Assembly: GCA_943349945.1 (NCBI GenBank)
Contig: CALQZS010000001.1
Location: 277,953-341,952, forward strand
Source: Candidatus Nomurabacteria bacterium
GTDB taxonomy: Bacteria > Patescibacteriota > Minisyncoccia > Phycocordibacterales > SBAW01
Reading direction: 5' to 3'
Length of the DNA: 64,000 nt
Below, piece after piece: positions 5,021-56,815 of this stretch. The notes below the pieces were generated by a model. It made no database searches and was not told the origin of the DNA. It worked only from the letters and a program-made list of their open reading frames with translations. A program made the translations under genes and the position numbers. Numbering within the stretch: the stretch's first letter is position 1; the number at the start of each line of letters is the position of its first letter.

Positions 5021-5335
5021 TTAGGTGCTTTTTTTGAGTAATGTTGCCAAGTCGGCAGCAAATGCCTCGGTAAGTGGCGGGGAAGGGATTTTTTGCACAA
5101 AAACGACTATTTCTCCGGTTCCGGCAACTGGCATGAGCGCCCGATAGACTGCACGGCGCAGCCGATTACGAACTACTGCCTTCTTTGCTACCGCCTTGGA
5201 TACCACGACCGCAGCACGCAGGCTCGTGGTGCCTGGGAGGTGTTTGAGTGATATATACATGGCCCGGCTTGAGCGGCCTCGAGCCAGCACATGCCGAACC
5301 TCTGCTGCGGCAAGGCGCCGCTGTTTGGCAAGCAT
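5021..5335 (-). CDS. rnpA: ribonuclease P protein component
   Basis: Basic 104-aa protein with '..VVRNRLRRAVYRAL..' RnpA signature, directly downstream of rpmH. Confidence 0.8.
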   Translation of the reverse strand: MLAKQRRLAAAEVRHVLARGRSSRAMYISLKHLPGTTSLRAAVVVSKAVAKKAVVRNRLRRAVYRALMPVAGTGEIVVFVQKIPSPPLTEAFAADLATLLKKST

Positions 5336-5344
5336 ACGTAACTA

Positions 5345-5479
5345 TTAGACGGACAGCTTTGCCCGGCCCTTGCGCCGTCGGCGCAGAATGGTCTTTTTGC
5401 CTCCCGCAGTGCTGGTACGCTTCAAAAACCCGTGTGCACGGGCGCGTTTGCGCTTTTTTGGCTGGTACGTCTGTGACAT
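5345..5479 (-). CDS. rpmH: 50S ribosomal protein L34
   Basis: Manual translation of the minus strand: [44 protein letters not shown] (44 aa), a clear bL34 match. Not in the ORF track because it is under 60 aa. Confidence 0.85.
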
Positions 5480-5583
5480 GGGTCAAATATACCGTATCCC
5501 TACCTTGTGCACAACTTGTGTACAAAGGCGACACTTTTGACGCATGGGTCTCACTCGCGTATCCTTACCTGTACCTACTTCCC

Positions 5584-6921
5584 ATGACTACTACAAAAGA
5601 ACTTTGGGAAAACGCGCTTGTTGAGCTTGAGCTCACCATTTCTAAACCAAATTTCAACACTTGGTTTAAAGATACGCACGTAGTGCGTGTTGAAGATGGG
5701 GTGGTGTACCTGGGGGTGCCGAGTCAGTTTGCTAGAGACTGGCTTTCGACCAAATTTCATAAGGATATATTGCGGTCGCTGCGTGGACTCTCCGACAGTG
5801 TGCGCTCGGTCGAGTACGTTATATCGCGCGGGGTCAAAAAAACGGACGAACCAAAAACTGTCCCCTCGGCACCGTCGGAGTTGCCGCTCGAGAACGTACA
5901 CGCAAAAACCAACCTAAACCCACGGTTTACCCTACAAACGTTCATCGTAGGACCCTTTAACGAGCTTGCGCATGCGGCAGCCCAAGCGGTTATCCGCAAA
6001 CCCGGCATCGCCTACAACCCACTCCTTATCTACGGCCCAACGGGCCTTGGCAAAACACACCTTATACAGTCGATAGGGAACCACTTCCGCATCAATGCAC
6101 CCGACCGTAAAGTGCAGTATGTAACGTCGGAGAAGTTTTCGATGGACTATGTTTCGTCTATACAGTCGGGCAAAATACAGAGTTTTAAAGAAAAATATCG
6201 CCAATACGACCTCCTTATCATGGATGACGTGCAATTTTTGGCGAAAATGGAAAAAACAAAAGAAGAGTTCTTTCATTTGTTTAATTACCTCCACGACGGC
6301 AACAAACAGCTGGTTTTTTCATCCGACCAACACCCAAACGTTATACAAAACCTAGAAGACAGGCTTAAATCGCGCTTTAGCGCCGGAATGATTGTTTCGG
6401 TGACCCCACCAGACCACGAGTCGCGTCTTGCTATAGTGCGCTCTAAAGCATCTGCCCATGGCGTGGTGTTGCCTGACGAAGTATTAGAGTACCTTGCGAC
6501 CGCGGTCGAGGGGAACGTTCGCGAACTTGAGGGAGCACTCAATCTTCTGCTTATTCAATTAGAAATCCGCACAGAACCTCTGACTATAAACGATGCTAAA
6601 ACACTGCTTCGCGGTGCAAGCAATATGACCAGGAAAAGCGTGTCTGTGCAGGAAGTGGTCAAAACCATTGCCGGTTTTTATGGCGTAGAGGAGGGGAGTA
6701 TCTATGAAAAAACCCGCCGAAAAGAGGTAGTGCGTCCACGGCAAGTGATTATGTTTTTATTGCGCGAAGACTTTAAAATATCGTTCCCCACTATTGGGGA
6801 AAAACTAGGAGGGCGCGACCACACCACTGTTATCCATTCTTGCGAAAAAATCCGCACCAACATACAAACCGACAGTGTTTTGTCCCAAGAATTACAGCAA
6901 ATCCGACTCATGTTGAAATGA
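5584..6921 (+). CDS. dnaA: chromosomal replication initiator DnaA (true start MTTTKELWEN..., not the upstream start in the ORF track)
   Basis: N-terminal DnaA domain, Walker A 'GPTGLGKTHL', AAA+ sensor motifs, C-terminal DNA-binding helix; divergent from rpmH. Confidence 0.9.
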   Translation: MTTTKELWENALVELELTISKPNFNTWFKDTHVVRVEDGVVYLGVPSQFARDWLSTKFHKDILRSLRGLSDSVRSVEYVISRGVKKTDEPKTVPSAPSELPLENVHAKTNLNPRFTLQTFIVGPFNELAHAAAQAVIRKPGIAYNPLLIYGPTGLGKTHLIQSIGNHFRINAPDRKVQYVTSEKFSMDYVSSIQSGKIQSFKEKYRQYDLLIMDDVQFLAKMEKTKEEFFHLFNYLHDGNKQLVFSSDQHPNVIQNLEDRLKSRFSAGMIVSVTPPDHESRLAIVRSKASAHGVVLPDEVLEYLATAVEGNVRELEGALNLLLIQLEIRTEPLTINDAKTLLRGASNMTRKSVSVQEVVKTIAGFYGVEEGSIYEKTRRKEVVRPRQVIMFLLREDFKISFPTIGEKLGGRDHTTVIHSCEKIRTNIQTDSVLSQELQQIRLMLK

Positions 6922-7123
6922 TGTGGATAAGTGGCAGAATAACCTATGGAGATATGTTGAAAACAAATGCACAGAATTGTTATCCCCAGAGGAAGTTGTT
7001 AGTTACACACAGGTATTCCGGGCAAAAAAATCCTTAAAAACAGCTTCACAGCAACAAACTAACGACTTATCCGAGTAATCCACAGCCTTAGTAGTAGTAA
7101 AAAGCTTTTATAAACAGAGACTT
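6922..7123. other. candidate oriC: dnaA-dnaN intergenic region with a perfect DnaA box and several near-consensus boxes plus an AT-rich stretch
   Basis: 'tgtggataa' (the reverse complement of TTATCCACA) at ~6925-6933; 'ttatcccca', 'taatccaca' and 'ttatccgag' variants; AT-rich 'tagtagtagtaaaaagcttttataaac' just upstream of dnaN. Confidence 0.5.
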
Positions 7124-8221
7124 ATGAAATTTGAAACAAGTACAGAACAACTTTTTACAGCAACGACTATAGCGAGTCGCTTTGCTGAAAAGCGTGCAAA
7201 CCTGCCAGTGCTGCAGAGTGTGCTTTTAGTTGCTGAAGGTGGGCGCTTGTCTCTGCGCGCCACAAACCTTGAGTGCGGTGTCGAGATTATTGTTCCTGCA
7301 AAAGTTACGACGGAGGGTGTAGTGGCTATACCCGCGGGCGTGCTCAGTGGTTTTTTAAGCAATGCGCGTGGCAAGGTTGTTTCGGGAGTGCTTGAGGGTG
7401 AGGTGTTTAAAATAGAAGCTGAGCGCGCTGCAGCGTCGATGAAAACCATTCCGCACGAGGATTTCCCCTTGTTGCCACGAGTATCTGCAGAAAAAGCCTT
7501 TACGGTTAAAAGCAGCGACCTGTCTCGCGCGATACGCAATGTTGCATACTGTGCATCGACCTCGGCGGTTAAGCCAGAGCTACAGAGCGTGCTGCTGCAA
7601 GGAGAGGGTGGAAAGTTGCTTGTTGCCGCTACCGACTCATTTCGGTTGGCAGAAAAATCTATATCACTGCGCTCTGGTGGGTCGGTGCCACAACTCCTGC
7701 TCCCTGCACGCAATGCGGCAGAGCTTATGCGCATTTTGGACACTACAAACGGCGATGTAGAGGTGTATTACAACGAAAATCAGATATCTACCCACGTCGA
7801 CAATACCTACTACACCAGCCGGCTTATAGATGGCACGTTCCCCAACTATCACCAAATAATCCCCAAAACATTTTTGACCGAGGCTGTGGTGCTCAGAGAA
7901 GATCTGTCCGCGTCGCTTAAATCGTTGTCGGTGTTTGCTGATAAATTTTCGCAAGTATCGCTGGCAATAGATCCGGTAAAGAAAACCATACTCCTGTCTT
8001 CTAGAAATCCTGATGTGGGCGAGCAAACCAGCTCTTTGCGCGCAACTATAGTGGGAGAAGAAACAACCATGTCGTTTAATGGTCGTTATTTGGCAGACAG
8101 TCTGCAGGCTATAACAGGGGAGAGTGTTCGACTGCACGCCAACGGCGCGGGCAAGCCCATGCTTATTAAAGACGCAGTAGACGAATCGTTCTTCTACTTG
8201 GCGATGCCGATGAATCGCTAA
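7124..8221 (+). CDS. dnaN: DNA polymerase III beta sliding clamp
   Basis: 365-aa three-domain clamp immediately downstream of dnaA. Confidence 0.9.
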   Translation: MKFETSTEQLFTATTIASRFAEKRANLPVLQSVLLVAEGGRLSLRATNLECGVEIIVPAKVTTEGVVAIPAGVLSGFLSNARGKVVSGVLEGEVFKIEAERAAASMKTIPHEDFPLLPRVSAEKAFTVKSSDLSRAIRNVAYCASTSAVKPELQSVLLQGEGGKLLVAATDSFRLAEKSISLRSGGSVPQLLLPARNAAELMRILDTTNGDVEVYYNENQISTHVDNTYYTSRLIDGTFPNYHQIIPKTFLTEAVVLREDLSASLKSLSVFADKFSQVSLAIDPVKKTILLSSRNPDVGEQTSSLRATIVGEETTMSFNGRYLADSLQAITGESVRLHANGAGKPMLIKDAVDESFFYLAMPMNR

Positions 8222-10461: not shown

Positions 10462-11664
10462 ATGGGGATTTTTTCTCGCGCAGTAAAACAAAAAGTTTCT
10501 ACAGACAAAGAAACTGTCGAGGCGCTTATGGGGCAGGGCGTCGAGAATGTTATTCCAAAAGACCTAGCACTTAAAAAGCTGGGTAGTGGGGAGCGGCTGC
10601 GCATTTACTGGGGCATAGACCCAACCGGCGCGCGTATCCACCTGGGTCATGCAGTGCCGCTGCGCAAACTTAAACGTTTTACCGAAGCGGGGCACCAGGT
10701 AATTTTTTTGGTGGGGAGTTTTACCGCAATGATAGGCGACCCAACGGACCGCGACGCCGCACGAGCGCCGCTTACCAAGCGCGAGGTGGAGGAAAACTTT
10801 CAAACCTACAAAAAACAGGCAGAAAAAATACTCGACTTTTCTAAAGTAGAGGTGCGTTACAACCACGAGTGGCTCGAGCCTCTCGACTTTTCAAAAATTG
10901 TAGAGCTGGCAAGTAAATTTACCGTGCAGCAGATGCTCCAACGCGACATGTTCCAAAAGCGCATGAACGAGGGTAAGCCTATATCGCTGCACGAGTTTTT
11001 GTACCCATTAATGGTCGGCTACGATTCTGTGGTGCTTGATGTGGACTGCGAGCTGGGCGGCTCAGACCAGGAGTTTAATATGCTCGCCGGCCGACACTTG
11101 CAACAAGTGTTTGGTAAGCGCGAAAAGTTTGTGATGACTACGAAGCTCATCGAAGGTCTCGACGGCCGAAAAATGAGTAAGTCGTACGGCAACTGCGTAT
11201 ACCTAGACGATGCGGCGGGGGATATGTACGGCAAGGTTATGTCGCTTAAAGACGAATTGGTGCGCACCTATTTTGAAATAGCGACGGATGTGTCGGCAAA
11301 AGAAATAGAGCAAGTGCTCGCCGGCCACCCCAAAGAGGCTAAGATGCGCTTGGCGCGAGAAATTGTTTCTATGTACCACTCCAAAGAAGCTGCAGAGGCG
11401 GCAGAAAAAAGCTTTACCGCAACCTTTAGCGAGGGGGGAGTGCCTGATGATGTTCCGGAAGTTACGGTTGTAAGAGAAACAACCTACCTAGAGGCGCTCG
11501 AGAGTCTGGGTGAGTCTAAAAGTGAACTGCGCCGCTTAGCTGAAGCGGGTGCCATACGCATTGTGGGCGGCGAAGTGGTTAAAGACATTACAAAACCTGT
11601 AGCTGCTACCCAGACTCTGCGTATAGGCAAACACCGCTTCCTTAAAGTAACTGTCAAAGAATAA
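10462..11664 (+). CDS. tyrS: tyrosyl-tRNA synthetase
   Basis: Class I 'HLGH' ('RIHLGHAVPL') and 'KMSKS' motifs, 'GIDPTG' TyrRS signature, C-terminal S4-like domain. Confidence 0.85.
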   Translation: MGIFSRAVKQKVSTDKETVEALMGQGVENVIPKDLALKKLGSGERLRIYWGIDPTGARIHLGHAVPLRKLKRFTEAGHQVIFLVGSFTAMIGDPTDRDAARAPLTKREVEENFQTYKKQAEKILDFSKVEVRYNHEWLEPLDFSKIVELASKFTVQQMLQRDMFQKRMNEGKPISLHEFLYPLMVGYDSVVLDVDCELGGSDQEFNMLAGRHLQQVFGKREKFVMTTKLIEGLDGRKMSKSYGNCVYLDDAAGDMYGKVMSLKDELVRTYFEIATDVSAKEIEQVLAGHPKEAKMRLAREIVSMYHSKEAAEAAEKSFTATFSEGGVPDDVPEVTVVRETTYLEALESLGESKSELRRLAEAGAIRIVGGEVVKDITKPVAATQTLRIGKHRFLKVTVKE

Positions 11665-11701
11665 AAAACACCCTGGCTACAAATGCCAGGGTGTTTTTTA
11701 T
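11664..11701. terminator. bidirectional rho-independent terminator between tyrS (+) and the acidic ORF (-)
   Basis: Hairpin 'acaccctggc-tacaaat-gccagggtgt' flanked by A-run and T-run. Confidence 0.6.
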
Positions 11702-11977: not shown

Positions 11978-12503
11978 GGCAGGTAAGACCCACGGCTATT
12001 GCGTCCATTTCGTCATCCAACGCTCGTTTACCCGAGGGGAGCGTCTGTAACCCTAGGAGCCGCAGCACCATCATAGAAACAGCGGATTTGTTGCTCTGTC
12101 CGTAGCCCGTAATGGCCACTTTTACTTGCAGCGGTGTGTATTCGTAGACAGGTAGATTGTTTTTTGAGGCAAGATACAGCAGTACGCCACGCACCGCGGC
12201 AACATTCATAGCTGTTTTTGCATTTTTTTCGAAATAGAGACTCTCTGTGGCTGCCATGGTTGGCTGCCACTGCGCAAGAAGTGCTTCGACGGCGCTACCA
12301 AGCTGGTGCAGGCGCTCTGCAAACTCCAACTTTGCGCTGGTTTGTATGCAGGTTGAGTGCAATAAAACTTCTTTACCGCCCTGTTTTTCTACGACCGCTA
12401 CCCCTAGGCGCTCAAACCCCGGATCAAAAGCCAACACCCGCAGAGTAGATAACGAAGGACAGTCCTTCGCGAAGGACTGTCCTTCGTTTGGTTTATTCTG
12501 CAT
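11952..12503 (-). CDS. ruvC: crossover junction endodeoxyribonuclease RuvC (start uncertain; the ORF-track start at 12551 would make the intergenic palindrome coding)
   Basis: '..LRVLAFDPGFERLGVAVVE..' RuvC N-terminal catalytic motif (Asp); RNase H fold size. Confidence 0.75.
   Translation of the reverse strand: MQNKPNEGQSFAKDCPSLSTLRVLAFDPGFERLGVAVVEKQGGKEVLLHSTCIQTSAKLEFAERLHQLGSAVEALLAQWQPTMAATESLYFEKNAKTAMNVAAVRGVLLYLASKNNLPVYEYTPLQVKVAITGYGQSNKSAVSMMVLRLLGLQTLPSGKRALDDEMDAIAVGLTCLASVRPGR
12451..12488. repeat. 38-bp perfect palindrome, copy 1 of 2; core CGAAGGACAGTCCTTCGCGAAGGACTGTCCTTCG
   Basis: Checked base by base: the sequence equals its own reverse complement. Lies between the yebC stop (12493) and the likely ruvC start. 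The second copy is at 51403-51442. Confidence 0.85.
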
Positions 12504-13020
12504 TGGTGTATACCTCGTTGACGTCGTCGTGGTCTTCGAGCTGGTCAACAACCTCAGAAAGTTTTTCCAAATCTTCGTCGGACAAGTCGACGGTGGTGGT
12601 GGCGACTAGGCCTTGTTCGCCTTTGGTAAATGCCCATAGTGCCGCCCCTTGGGTAGCAAGCTCGATATCGTTTTTGCTGAGGAGATGTTTAATTTCTTGT
12701 ACAGTGCGGTTACGGTTGTCTGTGTAGGCTTCGATGATAATAGCCACACCTCCAGGGCCATAGGCTTCGTACGTTACGGGCTCAAGCTCGGCTGCGCTAG
12801 ACGAGGCTTTGTCTATGGCGCGGTCGATATTGTCGGCGGGCATGTTTTCTGCTCGAGCTTTGTCTATCGCAAGACGCAGTCCTGGCGAATTTCTATCACC
12901 TTTGGCTTTTTTAGCCTCGACGGTGATGTAGCGCACCATTTTAGAAAAGACCTTACTCTTTTTGGCATCCGTCGCCGCCTTTTTGTGTTTAATTTTGCTC
13001 CACTTGCTGTGTCCTGACAT
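12493..13020 (-). CDS. yebC: YebC/PmpR-family probable transcriptional regulator (short, 175 aa)
   Basis: N-terminal 'MSGHSKWSKIKHKKA..' YebC signature; sits between ruvC and ruvB as in many bacteria. Confidence 0.8.
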   Translation of the reverse strand: MSGHSKWSKIKHKKAATDAKKSKVFSKMVRYITVEAKKAKGDRNSPGLRLAIDKARAENMPADNIDRAIDKASSSAAELEPVTYEAYGPGGVAIIIEAYTDNRNRTVQEIKHLLSKNDIELATQGAALWAFTKGEQGLVATTTVDLSDEDLEKLSEVVDQLEDHDDVNEVYTNAE

Positions 13021-13058: not shown

Positions 13059-14102
13059 CTACAAAAGCCGCTCGTGTAGGTCGGCCGGGGCATTTTTGCC
13101 CACGTGTTCATATGCGGCTTTTGTGGCCACGCGGCCGCGCGGGGTGCGCTCGATAAGGCCCAACTGTAAAAGAAAAGGTTCATGCACTTCCGACAGTGTG
13201 TTTGGTTCCTCTGCCAGGGCAGCAGCCAAGGCACCCACGCCTGCGGGGCCGCCCCCAAACCGCTCTATAAGCACGGTAAGGAGTTTGCGGTCGAGCGGGG
13301 TGAGGCCCAGTGCATCTACTTCGAGCATACCAAGCGACTCGTCGACTATTTGTTTAGACAGGGGAGCGCGTTTGAGTTGTGCGTAGTCTCGAGCGCGTTT
13401 GAGTAGATAGTTGGCGGTGCGTGGTGTCGAGCGGCTGCGCTTAGCAATCTCTCGTACACCACCTTCCTCTACTTCGACGCCCAATATTTTTGCCGACCGG
13501 CTGACTATGTTTGCAATATCATCTTCAGAATAAAACTCCAAGCGGTACACGCCGCCAGAAAACCGCGACCGCAGCGGCGCAGAGAGGTCGGCTACGCGCG
13601 TTGTTGCTGCGATGAGTGTAAAAGGGGGTAGGGGCAGCTCGAGTGTGCGCGCCGAAGGACCTTTACCTATGATGATATTGAGCGCACCCGACTCCATAGC
13701 AGGGTAGAGTACCTCTTCAATAGAGCGAGAGAGACGGTGTATCTCGTCGATAAATAAAATGTCACCGGGCTGCAGGTTGGTCAGCAAGGCTGCCAAGTCT
13801 CCCACGCGCTCTATGGCCGGGCCAGAAGTGGAGCGGAGTGCCCCGCCAAGTTCGCGGGCTATTAAGTGGGCGAGGGTGGTTTTGCCGAGGCCTGGCGGCC
13901 CGTAGAAAAGGATATGCTCGGGCGGGTTTTGTCGCTCGCGCGCGGCCGCAAGCAAAATATGCAAATTGTTTTTTATGGCCTCTTGGCCAACATACTCGTC
14001 CCATGATGCCGGGCGTAGTGTTTGGTCGAGTGCGGCAGCGACGCCAGAGTGTGCTGGGGGAGTGGTATCTTCCTCTTCTTTTTTAGACAATATGCTTGAC
14101 AT
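13059..14102 (-). CDS. ruvB: Holliday junction branch-migration ATPase RuvB
   Basis: Walker A '[15 protein letters not shown]', AAA+ RuvB architecture. Confidence 0.9.
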
Positions 14103-23896: not shown

Positions 23897-23925
23897 CAAA
23901 ACCCCGGCAAAAGCCGGGGTTTTGA
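23897..23925. terminator. rho-independent terminator after rpsT
   Basis: 'aaaaccccggc-aaaa-gccggggtttt'. Confidence 0.6.
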
Positions 23926-29219: not shown

Positions 29220-29222
29220 ACC

Positions 29223-29262
29223 AAAAACAAAATCCCCGACAAAATCGGGGATTTTGTTTTTG
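29223..29262 (+). terminator. rho-independent terminator after tRNA-Val
   Basis: 'aaaatccccga-caaa-atcggggatttt' followed by 'gtttttgg'. Confidence 0.55.
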
Positions 29263-29297
29263 GTATTGGGATGTAGTGAGGGGCTCGAAAGCCACAG

Positions 29298-37447: not shown

Positions 37448-37465
37448 TAACGGTATATACAAAAA

Positions 37466-37497
37466 CCCGCAGCCTACGACAGGTTGCGGGTTTTTGC
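37466..37497 (+). terminator. rho-independent terminator after the SIMPL gene
   Basis: 'aaaaacccgcagcctacgacaggttgcgggttttt'. Confidence 0.55.
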
Positions 37498-38769: not shown

Positions 38770-38800
38770 AATAAAACCGCCTCAATGAGGCGGTTTTTGT
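38770..38800 (+). terminator. rho-independent terminator after rplK (rplA does not follow)
   Basis: 'aaaaccgcctcaatgaggcggttttt'. Confidence 0.55.
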
Positions 38801-47329: not shown

Positions 47330-50300
47330 ATGGATTCAAAACCTCAGGGAGGGGAAGAGGCGCATCGTGGCGCCGAAGTAGCAAAAAAAGGCCCGCTGGC
47401 CATGCGCGAGGAGATAGTGCTCGATTTTTGGAACAAAGAAGAGATTTTTAAAAAGACCCTCGAAAAGCCAGCCCCCAAGGGCGAGTATGTATTTTATGAT
47501 GGTCCGCCGTTTGCAAACGGCTTGCCGCACTACGGGCATATTTTAGCGAGCTCGATTAAAGATGTTATCCCGCGCTACCGCACTATGCAGGGCTACCGTG
47601 TGGGGCGACAGTGGGGGTGGGACTGTCACGGACTCCCCGTCGAGAACTTGGTAGAAAAAGAGCTCGGGTTCAAAACCAAACGCGATATAGAAGACTACGG
47701 CATCGCTAAGTTTAATGCTGCTGCGCGCACTAGCATCATGAAGGATGTGTCGGACTGGAAGCGCATCATCCCGCGCATGGGGCGCTGGGCCGACATGGAC
47801 CACGACTACAAGACCATGGATGCTTCCTATACCGAGTCGGTATGGTGGGCGTTTAAAAAACTCTACGACAAAAAGCTTGTCTACGACGGCTTTAAGGCAA
47901 TGCACTTGTGTCCACGATGTGGCACTACACTTTCTAACTTTGAAGTTGCGCAGGGCTACCAAGACATAGATGACATAGCCGTAACGGTGAAGATGCCTTT
48001 GGTTGATGAGCCGGAGACGTCGTTGCTTATTTGGACCACCACACCATGGACACTGCCGGGCAACGTGGCGGTTGCGGTTAATGCGCAAGCTGCCTATGTA
48101 AAAGTCCGCACGGACGACGGTTTTGTGGTGGTCGCCAAAGATCTGGCGGCAAAAGTGCTCGGAGATGATTTAAAAATATACGGAGAAATAGCGGGCAAAG
48201 ACCTGGTGGGCAAATATTACACACCACCGTTTAATTATTTTGTTGATCAAATACACAAACACAAAACGCACGCATGGCGCGTGTACGCGGCGCCCTACGT
48301 TACCCTGACCGACGGCACAGGCATCGTGCACCTAGCGCCCGCCTATGGCGAGGAAGATCTGCAGCTGGCCCAAAAAGAAAAGATACCACTTATTCATCAT
48401 GTAACAGATGAGGGTAAGTTTGTGGCGACGGTCAGTGACTTTGCGGGGCTGCCAGTCAAACCAAAAGGCAGACACATGGAGACTGACACAAAAATAGTCG
48501 AGCACCTGCGCGCAAAAGGGCTTTTGTTTAAAGAAGAAAAAATAAACCATTCCTACCCGCACTGTTGGCGTTGCGACACTCCGCTGCTTAACTGGGCAGC
48601 CAACTCATGGTTTGTAAAAGTCTCTGCTATTAAAAGCAAACTGCTTGCGCAAAACAAAAAGGTGCAATGGGTACCTCCACATGTGGGGGAGGGGCGTTTT
48701 CAAAATGGTCTGGCAAGTGCCCCCGACTGGGCGGTGTCGCGCAGCCGCTACTGGGGTGCGCCCATTCCCGTATGGCGCCACAGCAAAACAAAAGAGATAA
48801 AAGTGCTCGGGTCAGTAGACGAGTTGTTGGCGTTGGTGCGTCGCTCGGGCAATAAGTACTTTATACTTCGCCATGGTGAAGCAAAGAGTAACGTCGAGCG
48901 TATACTCAACTGCGATAACACAGGGGAAAATCATTTGACCGACACAGGGCGCAAACAAGCTGCCGCCGCGGCGCGTGCACTACGCGGTAAAGGTATAGAC
49001 ACCATTGTTGCATCGCCGCTGCTGCGTGCACAAGAAACTGCGCGCATGCTGTGCGACCAGTTGGGCATCCCGCAGTCGGCCATTATGACGGATGTGCGGC
49101 TCAGTGAAGTGGGGTTTGGAGACCATAACAACGGCTCGGTGGATGCATGGGAGTCGCTGTTTCCCACCTTGGCAGACAAGTTTACCAAAGCAGCACCAGG
49201 CGTCGAGACGTACACGCAAGTACGCAGTCGTTTGGGAGAATTTATTTTTGATGTCGACAAACGCTACACAGGCAAACGCATTTTGGTAGTTACGCACGGG
49301 GCGCCTGCATGGCTTTTGTCTGAGTTTGCTGCACACACCGACCAAAAAACACTTGCAACCCGTGCACATGGCGGCAGTATGTTGTCGAATGGACAGTGGC
49401 AAGAGATGACCTTTACACCTTTTCCACACAACGAGACCTACGACCTCGACCTGCACCGCCCCTACATCGACGACGTGGTACTTGGCGACCCGCTGCGCGG
49501 CGAATGGAAGCGCGTCCCTGATGTGTTTGATTGTTGGTTCGAGTCTGGTTCGATGCCTTTTGCATCCAATCACTACCCGTTTAACAAACAAAAGTTTGAT
49601 CCAAAGAAGTTTTTTGGTCTTATGCCAAAGGGCTACCCTGCAGACTTTATAGCCGAAGGTCTCGACCAGACGCGCGGATGGTTTTACTCGCTTATCGTGC
49701 TGGGTACCGCGCTCTTCGGGCAAAGTCCGTACAAGCAGGTGATAGTAAACGGTTTGGTGCTTGCACAAGATGGACAAAAGATGAGCAAGCGGCTCAAAAA
49801 CTATCCCGACCCTATGGAAGTGGTAAACACCTTTGGTGCTGACGCGCTGCGATACTACCTACTTTCGTCGCCGGTTATTCGCGCCGAAGATCTTAACTTT
49901 GCGTTGCGCGGCGTAGAAGAGGTGTCTAAAAAGTTGCTCATGCGGCTCGACAATGTGCGCAGTTTTTATGACTTGTATGCAGCGGGGGAACATGCGCAAA
50001 GTGTGGCGCCAACGCACACTCTTGATGTGTGGGTGGTGTCGCGGCTTGGCGAACTTATTCGCGATACACAAGCAGGGTTCGAGTCGTACGAATTAGATTT
50101 GGCGACACGCCCTCTTGCTAGCTTTATCGACGATGTGTCCACGTGGTATCTGCGTCGCTCTCGCGACAGATTTAAAACCGAAGGCGCAGACAAACAGCAG
50201 GCGCTTGCCGTGTTGCGCTTGGTGCTCAAGACGACTGCTTTGGTGATGGCGCCTGCCATGCCGTTTTTTGCAGAAGACCTCTACCTACGGGTGCGCGACG

Positions 50301-50782
50301 CGGGCGACGCAGAAAGTGTGCACTTGGCTACATGGCCGCTGCCACAAAAAATAGACGAGTCGCTGCTTGCCGACATGGTGCGGGTGCGTGCGCTGTGTTC
50401 TCGTGGGTTGGAGTTGCGCGAAAAGGCGGGTGTCAAAGTACGCCAGCCGCTAAGCAAGCTTGTAGTAAAAGAACTCTCTTTGAGTGACGCGCTGCGTGCG
50501 GTTATTGCAGACGAGCTTAATGTAAAAGCAGTGGTAGAAGATGCGGGCATGCAAGAAGATGTGATGCTCGACACGACGCTCACTCCAGAGCTTAAAGAAG
50601 AAGGCATGCTGCGCGATATCATTCGCCACATACAAGGCTGGCGCAAAGAGCAGGGACTCACCATCACCGACCGCCCGGCTTACACTTTTGTGGGTAGTGC
50701 AGAGGAAGTTGCGGTTGCACAAAAATATACAGACGACATCCTTGCTGCGACGGGTCTCGCAAGTTTGGACGCGCATGCATAA
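47330..50782 (+). CDS. ileS: isoleucyl-tRNA synthetase (1150 aa) carrying an inserted, apparently intact histidine-phosphatase (PGAM/SixA-like) domain at residues ~505-705 (nt ~48842-49444)
   Basis: IleRS signatures: 'PPFANGLPHYGH', 'WDCHGLP', 'VFDCWFESGSMPF', 'KMSKRLKNYPDP'. Inserted domain motifs: 'ILRHGEAKSN' (RHG), 'SPLLRAQETA', 'VVTHGAPA'. Confidence 0.85.
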   Translation: MDSKPQGGEEAHRGAEVAKKGPLAMREEIVLDFWNKEEIFKKTLEKPAPKGEYVFYDGPPFANGLPHYGHILASSIKDVIPRYRTMQGYRVGRQWGWDCHGLPVENLVEKELGFKTKRDIEDYGIAKFNAAARTSIMKDVSDWKRIIPRMGRWADMDHDYKTMDASYTESVWWAFKKLYDKKLVYDGFKAMHLCPRCGTTLSNFEVAQGYQDIDDIAVTVKMPLVDEPETSLLIWTTTPWTLPGNVAVAVNAQAAYVKVRTDDGFVVVAKDLAAKVLGDDLKIYGEIAGKDLVGKYYTPPFNYFVDQIHKHKTHAWRVYAAPYVTLTDGTGIVHLAPAYGEEDLQLAQKEKIPLIHHVTDEGKFVATVSDFAGLPVKPKGRHMETDTKIVEHLRAKGLLFKEEKINHSYPHCWRCDTPLLNWAANSWFVKVSAIKSKLLAQNKKVQWVPPHVGEGRFQNGLASAPDWAVSRSRYWGAPIPVWRHSKTKEIKVLGSVDELLALVRRSGNKYFILRHGEAKSNVERILNCDNTGENHLTDTGRKQAAAAARALRGKGIDTIVASPLLRAQETARMLCDQLGIPQSAIMTDVRLSEVGFGDHNNGSVDAWESLFPTLADKFTKAAPGVETYTQVRSRLGEFIFDVDKRYTGKRILVVTHGAPAWLLSEFAAHTDQKTLATRAHGGSMLSNGQWQEMTFTPFPHNETYDLDLHRPYIDDVVLGDPLRGEWKRVPDVFDCWFESGSMPFASNHYPFNKQKFDPKKFFGLMPKGYPADFIAEGLDQTRGWFYSLIVLGTALFGQSPYKQVIVNGLVLAQDGQKMSKRLKNYPDPMEVVNTFGADALRYYLLSSPVIRAEDLNFALRGVEEVSKKLLMRLDNVRSFYDLYAAGEHAQSVAPTHTLDVWVVSRLGELIRDTQAGFESYELDLATRPLASFIDDVSTWYLRRSRDRFKTEGADKQQALAVLRLVLKTTALVMAPAMPFFAEDLYLRVRDAGDAESVHLATWPLPQKIDESLLADMVRVRALCSRGLELREKAGVKVRQPLSKLVVKELSLSDALRAVIADELNVKAVVEDAGMQEDVMLDTTLTPELKEEGMLRDIIRHIQGWRKEQGLTITDRPAYTFVGSAEEVAVAQKYTDDILAATGLASLDAHA

Positions 50783-51368
50783 GGTTGTGGCGACACAGGG
50801 GCTGGTGTTGACCAAGCGCAGCGCGGGCGAGGCAAACACGCTTGTGGCGATTTTAACTAAAGATCTGGGGCTTGTGCGCGCTGCGGCGCGCAGTGCGCGG
50901 GTAGAGCAGTCCAAATTGCGCTACGGGCTAGAGCCGCTCACACAAGGCAAGTTTTCTATGGTGCGTGGCCGGTATGAATGGAAGCTGGTCGGCACGGAAG
51001 AATTGTCTCGCGCGTATCTTGCGGGGTCGCCGCTGTCTCGTCGTGCGGCTGGGCGGGTAACTCGCTTGCTGCTGCGCCTTATACATGGGGAAGAACCCGT
51101 CGCCGATTTGTATACCACTGTTGTCGAGGGGCTCGACCGCTTGGTTCGGGCCGAGAGCGAGGCAGAGCTAGAGAGCGTTGAGTGTGTGTTGGTGTTGCGA
51201 GTATTGGCGCACCTGGGCTACTTGCCGCACACACCAGCTTTGGCGCCATTTTTGCAAACTGCCCCGGAGGGCGAGTTTATGTCCGAAGACCTGGCTGTGG
51301 CCGTGGCCCGCTCGCGCCCCTCGCTCATCCGCACCATCAACCATTCCCTCAGCGCCACCGGATTGTAA
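50775..51368 (+). CDS. recO: DNA repair protein RecO (short form, no zinc finger)
   Basis: N-terminal OB-fold '..TQGLVLTKRSAGEANTLVAILTKDLGLVRAAARSAR..'; the start overlaps the ileS stop by 8 nt. Confidence 0.55.
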   Translation: MHKVVATQGLVLTKRSAGEANTLVAILTKDLGLVRAAARSARVEQSKLRYGLEPLTQGKFSMVRGRYEWKLVGTEELSRAYLAGSPLSRRAAGRVTRLLLRLIHGEEPVADLYTTVVEGLDRLVRAESEAELESVECVLVLRVLAHLGYLPHTPALAPFLQTAPEGEFMSEDLAVAVARSRPSLIRTINHSLSATGL

Positions 51369-51402
51369 AATAAGGACTTTTGCCACTTATCCACAGAAAA
51401 CC

Positions 51403-51442
51403 TTACGAAGGTCAGTCCTTCGCGAAGGACTGACCTTCGTAA
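51403..51442. repeat. 40-bp perfect palindrome, copy 2 of 2 (TTACGAAGGTCAGTCCTTCGCGAAGGACTGACCTTCGTAA), with a perfect DnaA box 'ttatccaca' 7 bp upstream
   Basis: The sequence equals its own reverse complement. It differs from copy 1 (12451-12488) only by symmetric A<->T swaps that preserve the palindrome. Intergenic, between recO and the GspE-like ATPase. Confidence 0.85.
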
Positions 51443-51484
51443 AGAAAACTGGGGATAACTCAGTGGGGATACAATTAAGCTCTT

Positions 51485-52696
51485 GTGGAACCGCAAGAGG
51501 CGACTGTTGAAGAGGTGCTGTCCCGAGGCGGCTCTGTATCCATTATTGACCTGGTAGAGGCGCTGGTGCGACAAGCATATTTAGTGGGAGCGTCCGATAT
51601 TCATATTGATCCAACGGATGTAGCGCTTCGTGTGCGCATGCGAGTGGATGGAGTGTTGCAAGAAAAGTTTTTTCTAAGTAGGAGTATTCATTCTGAAATA
51701 ATTTCGCGTATCAAAGTGCTTTCGTGGTTGCGCACCGACGAGCATCAGGCCGTCCAAGACGGCCGTTTTCGTTTGCTTAGCGACGGGGCGATGCCAATTG
51801 ATGTGCGCGTGTCCATCGTACCTACATATTATGGAGAAAATGCTGTGCTACGGCTTTTAATCGATACTCCAGAGCAGCACACACTTGCAACGCTTGGATT
51901 TAGCGAGGATGACCAACAGAAGATACTTCGTGCCGTACGACACCCCGACGGTATGGTGCTTGCTACTGGCCCCACTGGTTCGGGCAAAACAACCACGCTC
52001 TATACATTGCTTAAAATGCTCAACACTAGCGAGGTGTCCATTGTTACGATAGAAGATCCTGTGGAGTATGCGATAAGCAACGTAACCCAAATACAAACAC
52101 AGGCAAAAACAGGACTGACTTTTGCAACTGGGTTGCGCTCTATTTTGCGCCAAGATCCAAATATTATTATGGTGGGCGAGATTCGAGACAAAGAAACTGC
52201 TGGGATTGCGGTTAATGCAGCACTCACGGGACACTTGCTGTTGTCGACCTTACATACAAGTAATGCGGCAGCAACTCTACCAAGGCTGCTTGATATGGGA
52301 GTCGATTCCTATTTGGTCGCGTCAACAGTTTCTTTGGTGATAGGGCAGCGTTTGGTTCGTAAAATTTGTACCGAGTGTCGGTCACCGTATGTCTTGTCGT
52401 CAAACGAACGCGAGAGTCTGCAATCTGTCCTGCAGGGCGCGCCAGATGATCCGTTTTTTATAGGGCAAGGGTGTGTGGTGTGCGATGGTAGCGGGTATCG
52501 CGGGCGAGTGGGTGTGGATGAAGTGCTGGTGGTAGATACGTCTGTGCGTGACGCACTTCTTGCAAGAGAGTCCGCGGCGCATATTCATGCACTTGCGGTC
52601 AAAAACGGTATGACTCCTATGTTACAAAATGGCCTACACAAAGCGCGCCTGGGTCTTACGAGTATTGCAGAATTATTGCGAACCATGCATGAATAG
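51485..52696 (+). CDS. short GspE/PilB-family secretion ATPase (no N-terminal N1 domain)
   Basis: Walker A 'GPTGSGKTTTLYTLL', Walker B/Asp box, His box, tetracysteine 'CTECRSP..CVVCDGSGYRGRVG'. Confidence 0.8.
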   Translation: MEPQEATVEEVLSRGGSVSIIDLVEALVRQAYLVGASDIHIDPTDVALRVRMRVDGVLQEKFFLSRSIHSEIISRIKVLSWLRTDEHQAVQDGRFRLLSDGAMPIDVRVSIVPTYYGENAVLRLLIDTPEQHTLATLGFSEDDQQKILRAVRHPDGMVLATGPTGSGKTTTLYTLLKMLNTSEVSIVTIEDPVEYAISNVTQIQTQAKTGLTFATGLRSILRQDPNIIMVGEIRDKETAGIAVNAALTGHLLLSTLHTSNAAATLPRLLDMGVDSYLVASTVSLVIGQRLVRKICTECRSPYVLSSNERESLQSVLQGAPDDPFFIGQGCVVCDGSGYRGRVGVDEVLVVDTSVRDALLARESAAHIHALAVKNGMTPMLQNGLHKARLGLTSIAELLRTMHE

Positions 52697-56428: not shown

Positions 56429-56815
56429 GTGCAAAGAGTACAAAAAGGATTTATGGCACTTGCGCTTGCTGGAGTATTGTCTGCTGGGCTCCTGCTTTTG
56501 GCAGGGGTGGGGAGCTTGCGTGCTTGGTATACACGGTCAAACGTGCTCGATTTTGAAATGAAGCAACAAAGCGAAGTACTCGCTGCTGCATGTATAGAGC
56601 AAGTACGCGTACAGCTTGTGAAAGATCCTTTATATGCAGGTGATGCTGTGTTTGCGTATGGAGAGGGGGTATGCACAGTGGGCGCAGTGCATGGCACAGC
56701 AGAAAAAGCATTTACGATTGTGAGCGAGTATCACGGTTTGCGCACTATCTTGGCTGTCACCCTTGATACGGCAACTATGGAACTACTCTCTGCGACGGAA
56801 CTATCCACACTCTAA
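56429..56815 (+). CDS. pilin-like protein with hydrophobic N-terminus lacking Glu+5
   Basis: '..QKG|FMALALAGVLSAGLLLLAG..'; resembles GspK-type pseudopilins that lack E5. Confidence 0.4.
   Translation: MQRVQKGFMALALAGVLSAGLLLLAGVGSLRAWYTRSNVLDFEMKQQSEVLAAACIEQVRVQLVKDPLYAGDAVFAYGEGVCTVGAVHGTAEKAFTIVSEYHGLRTILAVTLDTATMELLSATELSTL

Follow-up and report, generated by a model that had tools for sequence, protein, structure and literature searches.

A perfect palindrome at a Patescibacteria yebC-ruvC junction, a probable member of a family of dispersed miniature hairpin repeats

Repetitive extragenic palindromic (REP) sequences have been described both as singlets and as doublets, the REPINs (PMC3116915, PMC3337134). 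These elements of Enterobacteria and Pseudomonas have palindromic units of about 20-40 nt and reach tens to hundreds of extragenic copies per genome. Their inverted doublets are mobilised by REP-associated tyrosine transposases (RAYTs), the genes of which are typically flanked by REPs. Rickettsia palindromic elements (RPEs) are palindromic repeats that have inserted in frame within Rickettsia open reading frames (ORFs) (PMC10969869). Here we examine a perfect palindrome in a stretch of 64,000 nucleotides, the window, from a Candidatus Nomurabacteria bacterium (assembly GCA_943349945.1, contig CALQZS010000001.1, positions 277,953 to 341,952 of the forward strand). The organism is uncultured, and among named relatives Candidatus Adlerbacteria and Paceibacterota metagenome-assembled genomes are the nearest. 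The palindrome lies at the junction of yebC and ruvC (copy 1), and a near-identical palindrome lies between recO and a gene for a T2SSE/PilB-like ATPase (copy 2). We consider it probable that copy 1 belongs to a family of miniature hairpin repeats dispersed through Patescibacteria (the candidate phyla radiation, CPR; class Paceibacteria and relatives).

An earlier reading of the letters of the window, hereafter the original prediction, had described copy 1 as a perfect 38-bp palindrome built of two half-elements and copy 2 as differing from it by symmetric swaps alone. Both descriptions were borne out. Copy 1 consists of AACGAAGGACAGTCCTTCG abutting CGAAGGACTGTCCTTCGTT, two arms of 19 nt that are 100% complementary with a spacer of 0 nt, and it can be divided into two 17-nt hairpin units in inverted orientation. 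Copy 2, TTACGAAGGTCAGTCCTTCG abutting CGAAGGACTGACCTTCGTAA, is of the same make. Two compensatory swaps separate the copies, GGACAG/CTGTCC for GGTCAG/CTGACC and, in the outer pair, AAC..GTT for TAC..GTA, and there are 0 uncompensated changes. A degenerate 32-nt pattern matched the window twice, at copies 1 and 2, and had 0 matches in 100 shuffles. Likewise, a covariance model of the family recovered both copies at E values of about 1e-17 and found no third significant copy in the 64-kb window, with filters off too, and a search of the window for single units returned just the four halves of copies 1 and 2. Folding energies of -39 to -47 kcal/mol are predicted for the RNA of either strand, and the z-scores relative to shuffles lie between -7 and -10. 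Against Rfam 15, only tRNAs in the window reached the gathering score, and near copies 1 and 2 there was nothing but sub-threshold matches to generic miRNA-precursor hairpin models. The palindrome of copy 1 was found in 6/6 independent assemblies retrieved for the same organism (ENA, JGI, NCBI, Logan), which rules out an assembly artefact.

The palindrome belongs to a family whose basic unit is a 17-nt stem-loop, CGAAGG-N5-CCTTCG (consensus C-R-AAGG, N5, CCTT-Y-G). The unit occurs as singlets, as abutted inverted doublets that make a 34-nt perfect palindrome with 2-3 paired flanking bases, and in occasional larger clusters; both unit orders, U-U' and U'-U, are found. A scan of a genome collection, one genome per species, with the pattern GAAGG-N5-CCTTC-N0-6-GAAGG-N5-CCTTC gave at least 111 loci. 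Among the matches listed, the N5 stretches were fully or nearly complementary in 36 of the 38 CPR-labelled loci. The corresponding figure for other phyla was 20 of 59 loci, and the remainder of these were mostly EGxxF-type coding repeats. The abutted "GC" centre occurred at least 17 times and, among the matches listed, only in CPR or unlabelled bins. In a metagenome scan, a strict doublet pattern returned 40 instances (37 loci; 34 fully palindromic), with at most nine loci per N5. The species-specific pattern had 0 matches in a metagenome scan, the collection evidently being without this organism. The general doublet pattern had 0 matches among viral contigs, so a phage vector is not indicated.

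An alignment of 18 members of the family, drawn from many genomes, has a C ahead of GAAGG and a G behind CCTTC in 18/18 members without either being required by the pattern. Over the five N5 pairs, 89 of 90 cells keep their pairing, and a single pair shows up to four pair types. The earlier claim that the swaps between the two window copies are compensatory and preserve the stem is upheld across the family. The covariation score of this alignment was 0.458, as against 0.115 for shuffles and at most 0.08 for slid controls; an alternative fold into two short hairpins had weak extra support beyond the forced arms. N5 is common to the copies within a genome (GTTAC in CP060229.1, CAAGA in two Nomurabacteria, ACAGT/TCAGT here) and differs from genome to genome, yet the arms stay complementary.

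Most copies are intergenic and lie between convergent, tandem or, rarely, divergent genes. Singlets (for example ATACGAAGGTTTAACCTTCGTAT) were found in L009, L021, L063, L119 and L125/L126, that is, in genomes or lineages that also hold doublets, and the window has no element at the position that aligns with the L119 singlet. The flanks are of the TTAC..GTAA or CCCC..GGGG types, and GTAG adjoins window copy 1 only. The 995-kb genome CP060229.1 carries at least four copies. At one of its loci (L024, 2406-2490), the doublet and its right flank are partly duplicated in tandem, with ACCCTTCGCGAAGGGTAACCCTTCGGGATGTAAAT present twice, which shows local amplification of the element. Three roles had been put forward for the palindrome, and the only one to survive is that of a REP-like genome-wide element: the motif search finds the same architecture in many Patescibacteria genomes, in unrelated contexts, both between and within genes.

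The junction that holds copy 1 can be compared with empty and filled sites in relatives. On the minus strand of the window, the order is ruvB (13059-14102), yebC, the palindrome and ruvC, with dnaA and dnaN a few kb away, and just 4 nt separate the yebC TAA stop from the palindrome. We fetched the syntenic loci of six relatives and aligned the yebC-ruvC junctions. RuvC homologues are mostly 156-160 aa long, and their alignment to the 183-aa ORF of the window begins at about residue 23, with (M)RVLAFDPG. The site is empty in L128 (RuvC 82% identical), in L120 (74%) and in the Adlerbacteria loci L121/L122, where 13-16 nt separate the yebC stop from the AFDPG codons. At these empty sites ruvC begins with an ATG placed 8 nt ahead of the yebC stop (ATGCAGAGTAA), and the RuvC N-termini read from it are MHSSLRVLAFDPG, MQSNPRILAFDPG or MQPNKNRVLAFDPG. 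Neither L128 nor L120 offers a second start codon, and the position of the window's downstream GTG is no exception. The ATG and the GAGGT ahead of it are invariant in 6/6 aligned loci, the window included.

Compared with the empty sites, the window is longer by 48 nt, which start right behind the yebC stop and read, on the gene strand, ACCA, the 38-bp palindrome and ATCTAC. The insertion is stop-free in the ruvC frame, where it encodes a peptide of the NEGQSFAKDCPSLSTL type; the wrong frames encode TKRRTVLREGLSFVIY. Because the insertion is in frame and stop-free after the yebC stop, read-through is favoured: RuvC is most likely translated from the ancestral ATG through the palindrome, gaining a 16-residue N-terminal insert, NEGQSFAKDCPSLSTL. 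The predicted N-terminus would be MQNKP-NEGQSFAKDCPSLSTL-RVLAFDPG, and gene callers pick the same start. The aligned junctions indicate that copy 1 is an in-frame insertion in the first ruvC codons and would not be truly intergenic. The original prediction placed it between yebC and ruvC, which is right in that it begins 4 nt past the yebC stop but not in that it lies inside the ORF that opens at the ancestral ruvC ATG. The implied view that the ORF extends through the palindrome spuriously runs against the evidence of those relatives, in which the ruvC ATG is found upstream and overlaps the yebC stop.

Two further relatives carry a different palindromic element, of 111 nt, at the same bond, again in frame and stop-free. 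One is L118, which has 94% nucleotide identity to the window and a RuvC core identity of 98%, and the other is the more distant L119 (RuvC 77%). The L118 codons ahead of RVLAFDPG are CGC GTC CTT, and there is no start codon downstream of the element; since an alternative start is absent, translation of L118 RuvC would have to cross the 111-nt element. By our own estimate, the odds that both inserts are a multiple of three and stop-free by chance are about 1%. N-terminal extensions of RuvC range from 0 to 50 aa across the clade, and for this reason the RuvC N-terminus looks like a permissive site that has been hit repeatedly by palindromic inserts.

The 111-nt element was located at 529-637 of L118 and 10011-10119 of L119, orthologous to about 12445-12492 of the window. 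It has the terminal inverted repeats GGGCTCGAAATAG.TTCTC and GAGAAGCTATTTCGAGCCC and a centre of GAAAATTCCT-AGC-AAGGAATTTTC. The element is 96% identical between L118 and L119, where the flanking ruvC is about 70% and yebC about 88% identical, and BLAST found no further copies of it in the window or in any fetched locus. The RuvC homologues P0009 and P0012 have unrelated N-terminal extensions (...RKFSAKNFLRPR... and ...KPSQSFSIDAKASRE...), peptides that resemble translated palindromic DNA. These extensions suggest that the yebC/ruvC junction may be a recurrent hot spot.

About a fifth of the sampled copies (roughly 20-25%) lie inside genes, in frame. Hosts confirmed with Pfam are Tgt (E = 2e-131), UPF0102/YraN, a PrmC-like methyltransferase, RuvC, TsaD (at the same position in two genomes), a beta-CASP RNase, a MiaB-like protein, a radical-SAM protein, MurC, a metallophosphoesterase, MurB (in two genomes), AlaRS and a second MurC; UvrA and CarB hosts were recognised by eye only. 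The conserved arms contain 0 stop codons in all six frames, so that copies can persist in frame within genes, and 14 of the 21 distinct perfect doublets are stop-free in all frames. Use of the frames is biased. Among the verified genes, six use the frame that reads EGxxFAKxxPS (EGQSFAKDCPS in the window's RuvC), RRxxLREGxxF is the frame of one or two, and the third frame is used by none. The frame used in each host gene is stop-free for the variant it carries; the L159 element, whose first frame is interrupted by a stop, is read in the second. Copy 2, which is intergenic, has a TGA in the EGxxFAK frame. A frame bias of this kind is the outcome that would be expected from selection on the translated peptide.

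Copy 2 lies between recO, which stops at 51368, and the T2SSE/PilB-like ATPase gene, which starts with a GTG at 51485. The genes on either side are co-directional at both copies, as the original prediction stated. Two contigs from relatives whose RecO is 93% identical stop within the palindrome (...CCTTCGACGAAGGA). These ends, at L123 10595-10656 and L124 4606-4667, belong to independent contigs of a close relative and probably represent an assembly break. Perfect palindromes apparently break de Bruijn assemblies, and the family may be under-counted in metagenome-assembled genomes as a result. In L125/L126 (RecO 75% identical), the same spacer holds a single unit, TTACAAAGGACTGACCTTTGTAA, with compensatory G-to-A and C-to-T changes in its arms and with the N5 of the right half of the window doublet. 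Since a single unit occupies the orthologous spacer, the site of copy 2 appears to be old and to have switched between singlet and doublet.

Several features of the family resemble REPs and REPINs: the unit is a short hairpin with compensatory stem pairing, singlets coexist with inverted doublets that form one long hairpin, the sequence variant is specific to the genome while pairing is preserved, and copies lie mostly at gene 3' ends or within operons and rarely between divergent genes. The elements described here are nevertheless much shorter (a 17-nt unit and a 34-40-nt doublet, without a spacer) and lack the GTAG/CTAC head. Their copy number is low in the 64 kb of the window, at two, and is at least four in CP060229.1. 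No RAYT turned up when the window and 1.27 Mb of fetched loci were scanned with a crude HUH...Y motif. Their presence within genes also differs from the extragenic habit of REPs. In this last respect they are closer to RPEs, which are likewise palindromic repeats in the reduced genome of a host-dependent bacterium, in frame in unrelated housekeeping ORFs. The RPE trait of a translated insert is suggested here by the kept frame, the lack of stops, the bias to EGxxFAKxxPS and the missing alternative start in L118. RPEs are set apart by length and phylum (about 100-150 bp in Alphaproteobacteria, as against 34-48 nt in Patescibacteria), and the bias to one 11-residue peptide is a further difference. 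The family therefore belongs in full to neither group, and both are its closest analogues.

Other described systems are less similar. Miniature inverted-repeat transposable elements (Correia/NEMIS of Neisseria, ERIC, BOX and RUP) are also small, non-autonomous and of inverted-repeat structure, and they are often co-transcribed with their neighbours and sometimes form in-frame fusions (PMC10969869). In contrast to these, the element here has no known parent insertion sequence, is a perfect palindrome from end to end, with no core enclosed by terminal repeats, and shows no target-site duplication at the sole insertion with a defined empty site. Mycobacterial interspersed repetitive units are direct tandem repeats of 40-100 bp, non-palindromic, that occupy gene junctions inside operons and preserve overlapping or coupled start and stop codons. 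The placement of copy 1 at a gene junction with its coupled codons kept is reminiscent of these units; the elements here are palindromic. Template-switch mutagenesis at quasi-palindromes is a mutational mechanism rather than an element family. It could explain the step from imperfect to perfect palindromes, from singlet to doublet and the overlay in MurB that is described below, but not the spread of one sequence to many loci.

Together, the shared N5 within genomes, its divergence between genomes and the unfailing complementarity of the arms lead us to infer that each copy is made from, or homogenised with, another by way of a hairpin-forming intermediate, single-stranded or cruciform, in a manner like that of REPs and REPINs. 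At copy 1, the 48-nt insertion would have landed right after the yebC stop, within the first ruvC codons. RuvC would still be made from the ancestral ATG, with the insert in an N-terminal part that tolerates variable extensions. The RNA hairpin, 4 nt past the yebC stop and about 14 nt past the ruvC start, would probably dampen or modulate translational coupling as a side effect, and copy 1 probably is not a designed regulatory switch. Copy 2 would be an intergenic member at an older site, where a single unit was converted to or from a doublet.

A number of observations speak against this account, and some of them favour other explanations. With two copies in 64 kb, the element is much less dense than classic REPs or RPEs. 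Compared with the empty sites, no direct repeat or target-site duplication flanks the 48-nt insertion, and the crude regular-expression search of the window and the 1.27 Mb of fetched loci found no HUH/Y1 transposase. A start of the window's ruvC at the GTG downstream of the palindrome is possible, if less well supported than the ancestral ATG. The site of copy 2 is occupied in a relative with just 75% RecO identity, and a site occupied for so long fits a conserved function equally well as long-lived junk. In MurB, the palindrome overlays native codons. The protein without it reads E-A-L-A-F-A-R-S-K (L166: GAG GCT CTG GCA TTC GCC CGT) and the protein with it E-G-L-A-F-A-K-A-R-P-S, with one arm over native codons that already resemble it and a net gain of 2-3 residues. 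At the orthologous MurB position in two genomes, N5 is TTTAA and CCTCG, in each case that of the genome's own family, and the MurB homologue P0245 (L167, codons ~33-52) has a third unit, CAAAGG-GTTCC-CCTTTG, appended in frame to give EGLAFAKARPSFAKGSPLGE. These MurB facts suggest homology-assisted conversion or an origin on the spot, with units growing and being homogenised locally by conversion or template switching, beside dispersal or instead of it. Taken further, palindromes might grow in place throughout, with template switching "correcting" quasi-palindromes at short ones like TTCGCGAA and gene conversion homogenising the products. The singlet and doublet states of the recO site, the partial tandem duplication in L024 and the existence of both unit orders are in keeping with such growth, as are the MurB overlay and the third unit. 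We regard it as rather unlikely on the whole, since the ruvC copy is a clean 48-nt gain unlike the empty-site sequence and purely local processes leave unexplained the same arms and N5 at many unrelated loci per genome.

It is also conceivable, if unlikely, and most of all for the long-lived recO site, that the palindrome is a selected cis-acting RNA hairpin that stabilises mRNA, directs processing by RNase or sets the yebC:ruvC and recO:pilB ratios, its spread being secondary. Positioned 4 nt past the yebC stop, such a hairpin could stall or slow terminating ribosomes or block ruvC re-initiation, and E. coli REPs less than about 15 nt from a stop codon reportedly lower expression of the upstream gene, a finding ascribed to Liang, Rudd and Deutscher in 2015. 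The very stable fold, the strict compensatory changes, the hairpin kept at the recO-T2SSE site across lineages at 75-93% RecO identity and the rarity of copies between divergent genes, expected for elements of 3' untranslated regions or operons, all agree with this idea. It sits poorly with a yebC-ruvC site that is empty in three relatives and filled by an unrelated element in two others, with the absence of an Rfam match, and with the fifth or so of copies that are in frame in unrelated essential genes, which are hard to rationalise as regulators. An operator for a dimeric or tetrameric regulator of DNA-repair and competence genes (ruvC, recO, the pilB-like ATPase), another of the roles proposed earlier, could draw on the dyad symmetry, the two tandem 15-17-bp sub-palindromes and the DNA-repair genes next to both window copies. 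It is very improbable, given that the same junction lacks the site in close relatives (L128, L120, L121), that family members lie in the coding regions of Tgt, TsaD, MurB, MurC, AlaRS and others and in spacers between convergent genes, and that the inner 5 nt vary by genome with the arms still complementary, which protein recognition does not need. The last of the earlier proposals, an intrinsic attenuator or Rho-independent (possibly bidirectional) terminator, we hold to be extremely improbable. A consensus scan does flag both copies as a hairpin plus T-run, but the T-run is on the strand opposite to the flanking genes; what comes after the hairpin on the transcribed strand is ATCTACTCTG at copy 1 and AAGAAAACTG at copy 2. 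Moreover, copy 1 is within an overlapping, translationally coupled gene pair, and canonical terminators with an A-tract, hairpin and T-tract exist elsewhere in the window.

These canonical, bidirectional terminator-like hairpins, clearly unlike the element, are found at 29220-29264, 11661-11701, 37460-37496, 23897-23924 and 38773-38797. Three other candidates were considered and rejected. A DNA-uptake sequence would be over-represented, and CGAAGG and CCTTCG, with 19 and 13 occurrences in the window, are not. An integron attC site or an IS608-type TTAC target does not fit, as the TTAC..GTAA flank just extends the stem and is replaced by CCCC..GGGG in other genomes. A guide array of the TIGR or CRISPR type does not fit copies that are isolated singlets and doublets rather than arrays; the TIGR architecture, known from CPR, consists of tandem repeat-spacer units with box C/D-like motifs (PMC12045711).

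A literature search of incomplete coverage brought up no account of elements like these from Patescibacteria or CPR, which does not prove that they are new. We class the family as a new variety of miniature palindromic repeats, not as a categorically new element. More tentatively, and with somewhat more doubt than belief, we propose that it may represent a phylum-wide, previously undescribed class of ultra-short self-complementary elements, with a 17-nt unit and a 34-nt doublet, that settle in intergenic DNA and in essential genes, there with a preferred reading frame, evolve in concert within each genome and, along with other palindromic elements, recur at permissive junctions. Were this true, it would imply a machinery for hairpin-specific copying or conversion in minimal genomes and a source of lineage-specific insertions in CPR proteins that has so far gone unrecognised. 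CPR genomes are about 1 Mb, dense and thought to be streamlined, and a hairpin repeat surviving in tRNA-modification, cell-wall and DNA-repair genes is accordingly unexpected. Such a repeat would be a counterpart, in an unrelated host-dependent lineage, to the RPEs of Rickettsia, would offer a testable handle on the origin of small peptide insertions in CPR proteins, and poses the question of the enzyme that copies it. For annotation, loci of this kind can be mis-described as intergenic regulatory hairpins or as spurious ORF extensions, and for assembly, the contigs of a close relative break within the palindrome. The features of both window loci are collected in Table 1.

Table 1. Positions in the 64-kb window of the two palindromes and of the features around them
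Feature	Coordinates	Strand	Basis or remark
yebC, 175 aa	12493..13020	-	Pfam TACO1_YebC_N and Transcrip_reg; TAA stop at 12495-12493
ruvC ORF from the ancestral ATG (12503-12501), 183 aa	11952..12503	-	Pfam RuvC domain, residues 23-174
Insertion of 48 nt (16 codons)	12445..12492	-	Alignment with the empty sites L128, L120 and L121
Copy 1, perfect 38-bp palindrome	12451..12488	no strand	Inverted doublet; units 12453-12469 and 12470-12486, with 2 paired flanking bases per side
GAGGT, Shine-Dalgarno-like	12512..12516	-	8 nt upstream of the ruvC ATG, within the last yebC codons
Alternative in-frame GTG start past the palindrome	12435..12437	-	Read from sequence; recognisable Shine-Dalgarno absent
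Copy 2, perfect 40-bp palindrome (doublet)	51403..51442	no strand	Units 51406-51422 and 51423-51439
Extended imperfect palindrome around copy 2, 72 nt	51387..51458	no strand	36-nt arms, 83% complementary
DnaA-box-like 9-mer bracketing copy 2	51387-51395	+	TTATCCACA
DnaA-box-like 9-mer bracketing copy 2	51450-51458	-	TTATCCCCA

The DnaA-box-like 9-mers that bracket copy 2 seem to belong to the locus itself and not to travel with the element. Situated just ahead of the T2SSE/PilB-like gene, the pair may form a DnaA-responsive promoter region or a DnaA-titrating site. In L125/L126, at about 10586-10640, two perfect TTATCCACA boxes surround the orthologous hairpin. Across the whole window, DnaA boxes with at most one mismatch number 23, compared with 11.5 expected. 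Three of these boxes, one perfect and two with one mismatch, lie in the spacer (6922-7084) between dnaA (~5248-6921) and dnaN (~7124-8221), which is probably oriC.

Downstream of recO, a type IV pilus-like cluster (T2SSE, T2SSF, small proteins and an N_methyl pilin) extends in the window from 51485 to about 57420, between recO and a CLIPPER-domain gene. The Adlerbacteria relative L127 has a 19-nt spacer after recO and lacks the whole pilus cluster, recO being followed directly by the CLIPPER-domain gene. There is no matching repeat at the far end of the cluster, near window position 56800. Also in this region, the isoleucyl-tRNA synthetase (47330-50782, plus strand, 1150 aa) carries a histidine-phosphatase domain (PF00300, RHGE motif) between two tRNA-synt_1 parts, and the same architecture is annotated in the orthologues of L123, L125 and L127.

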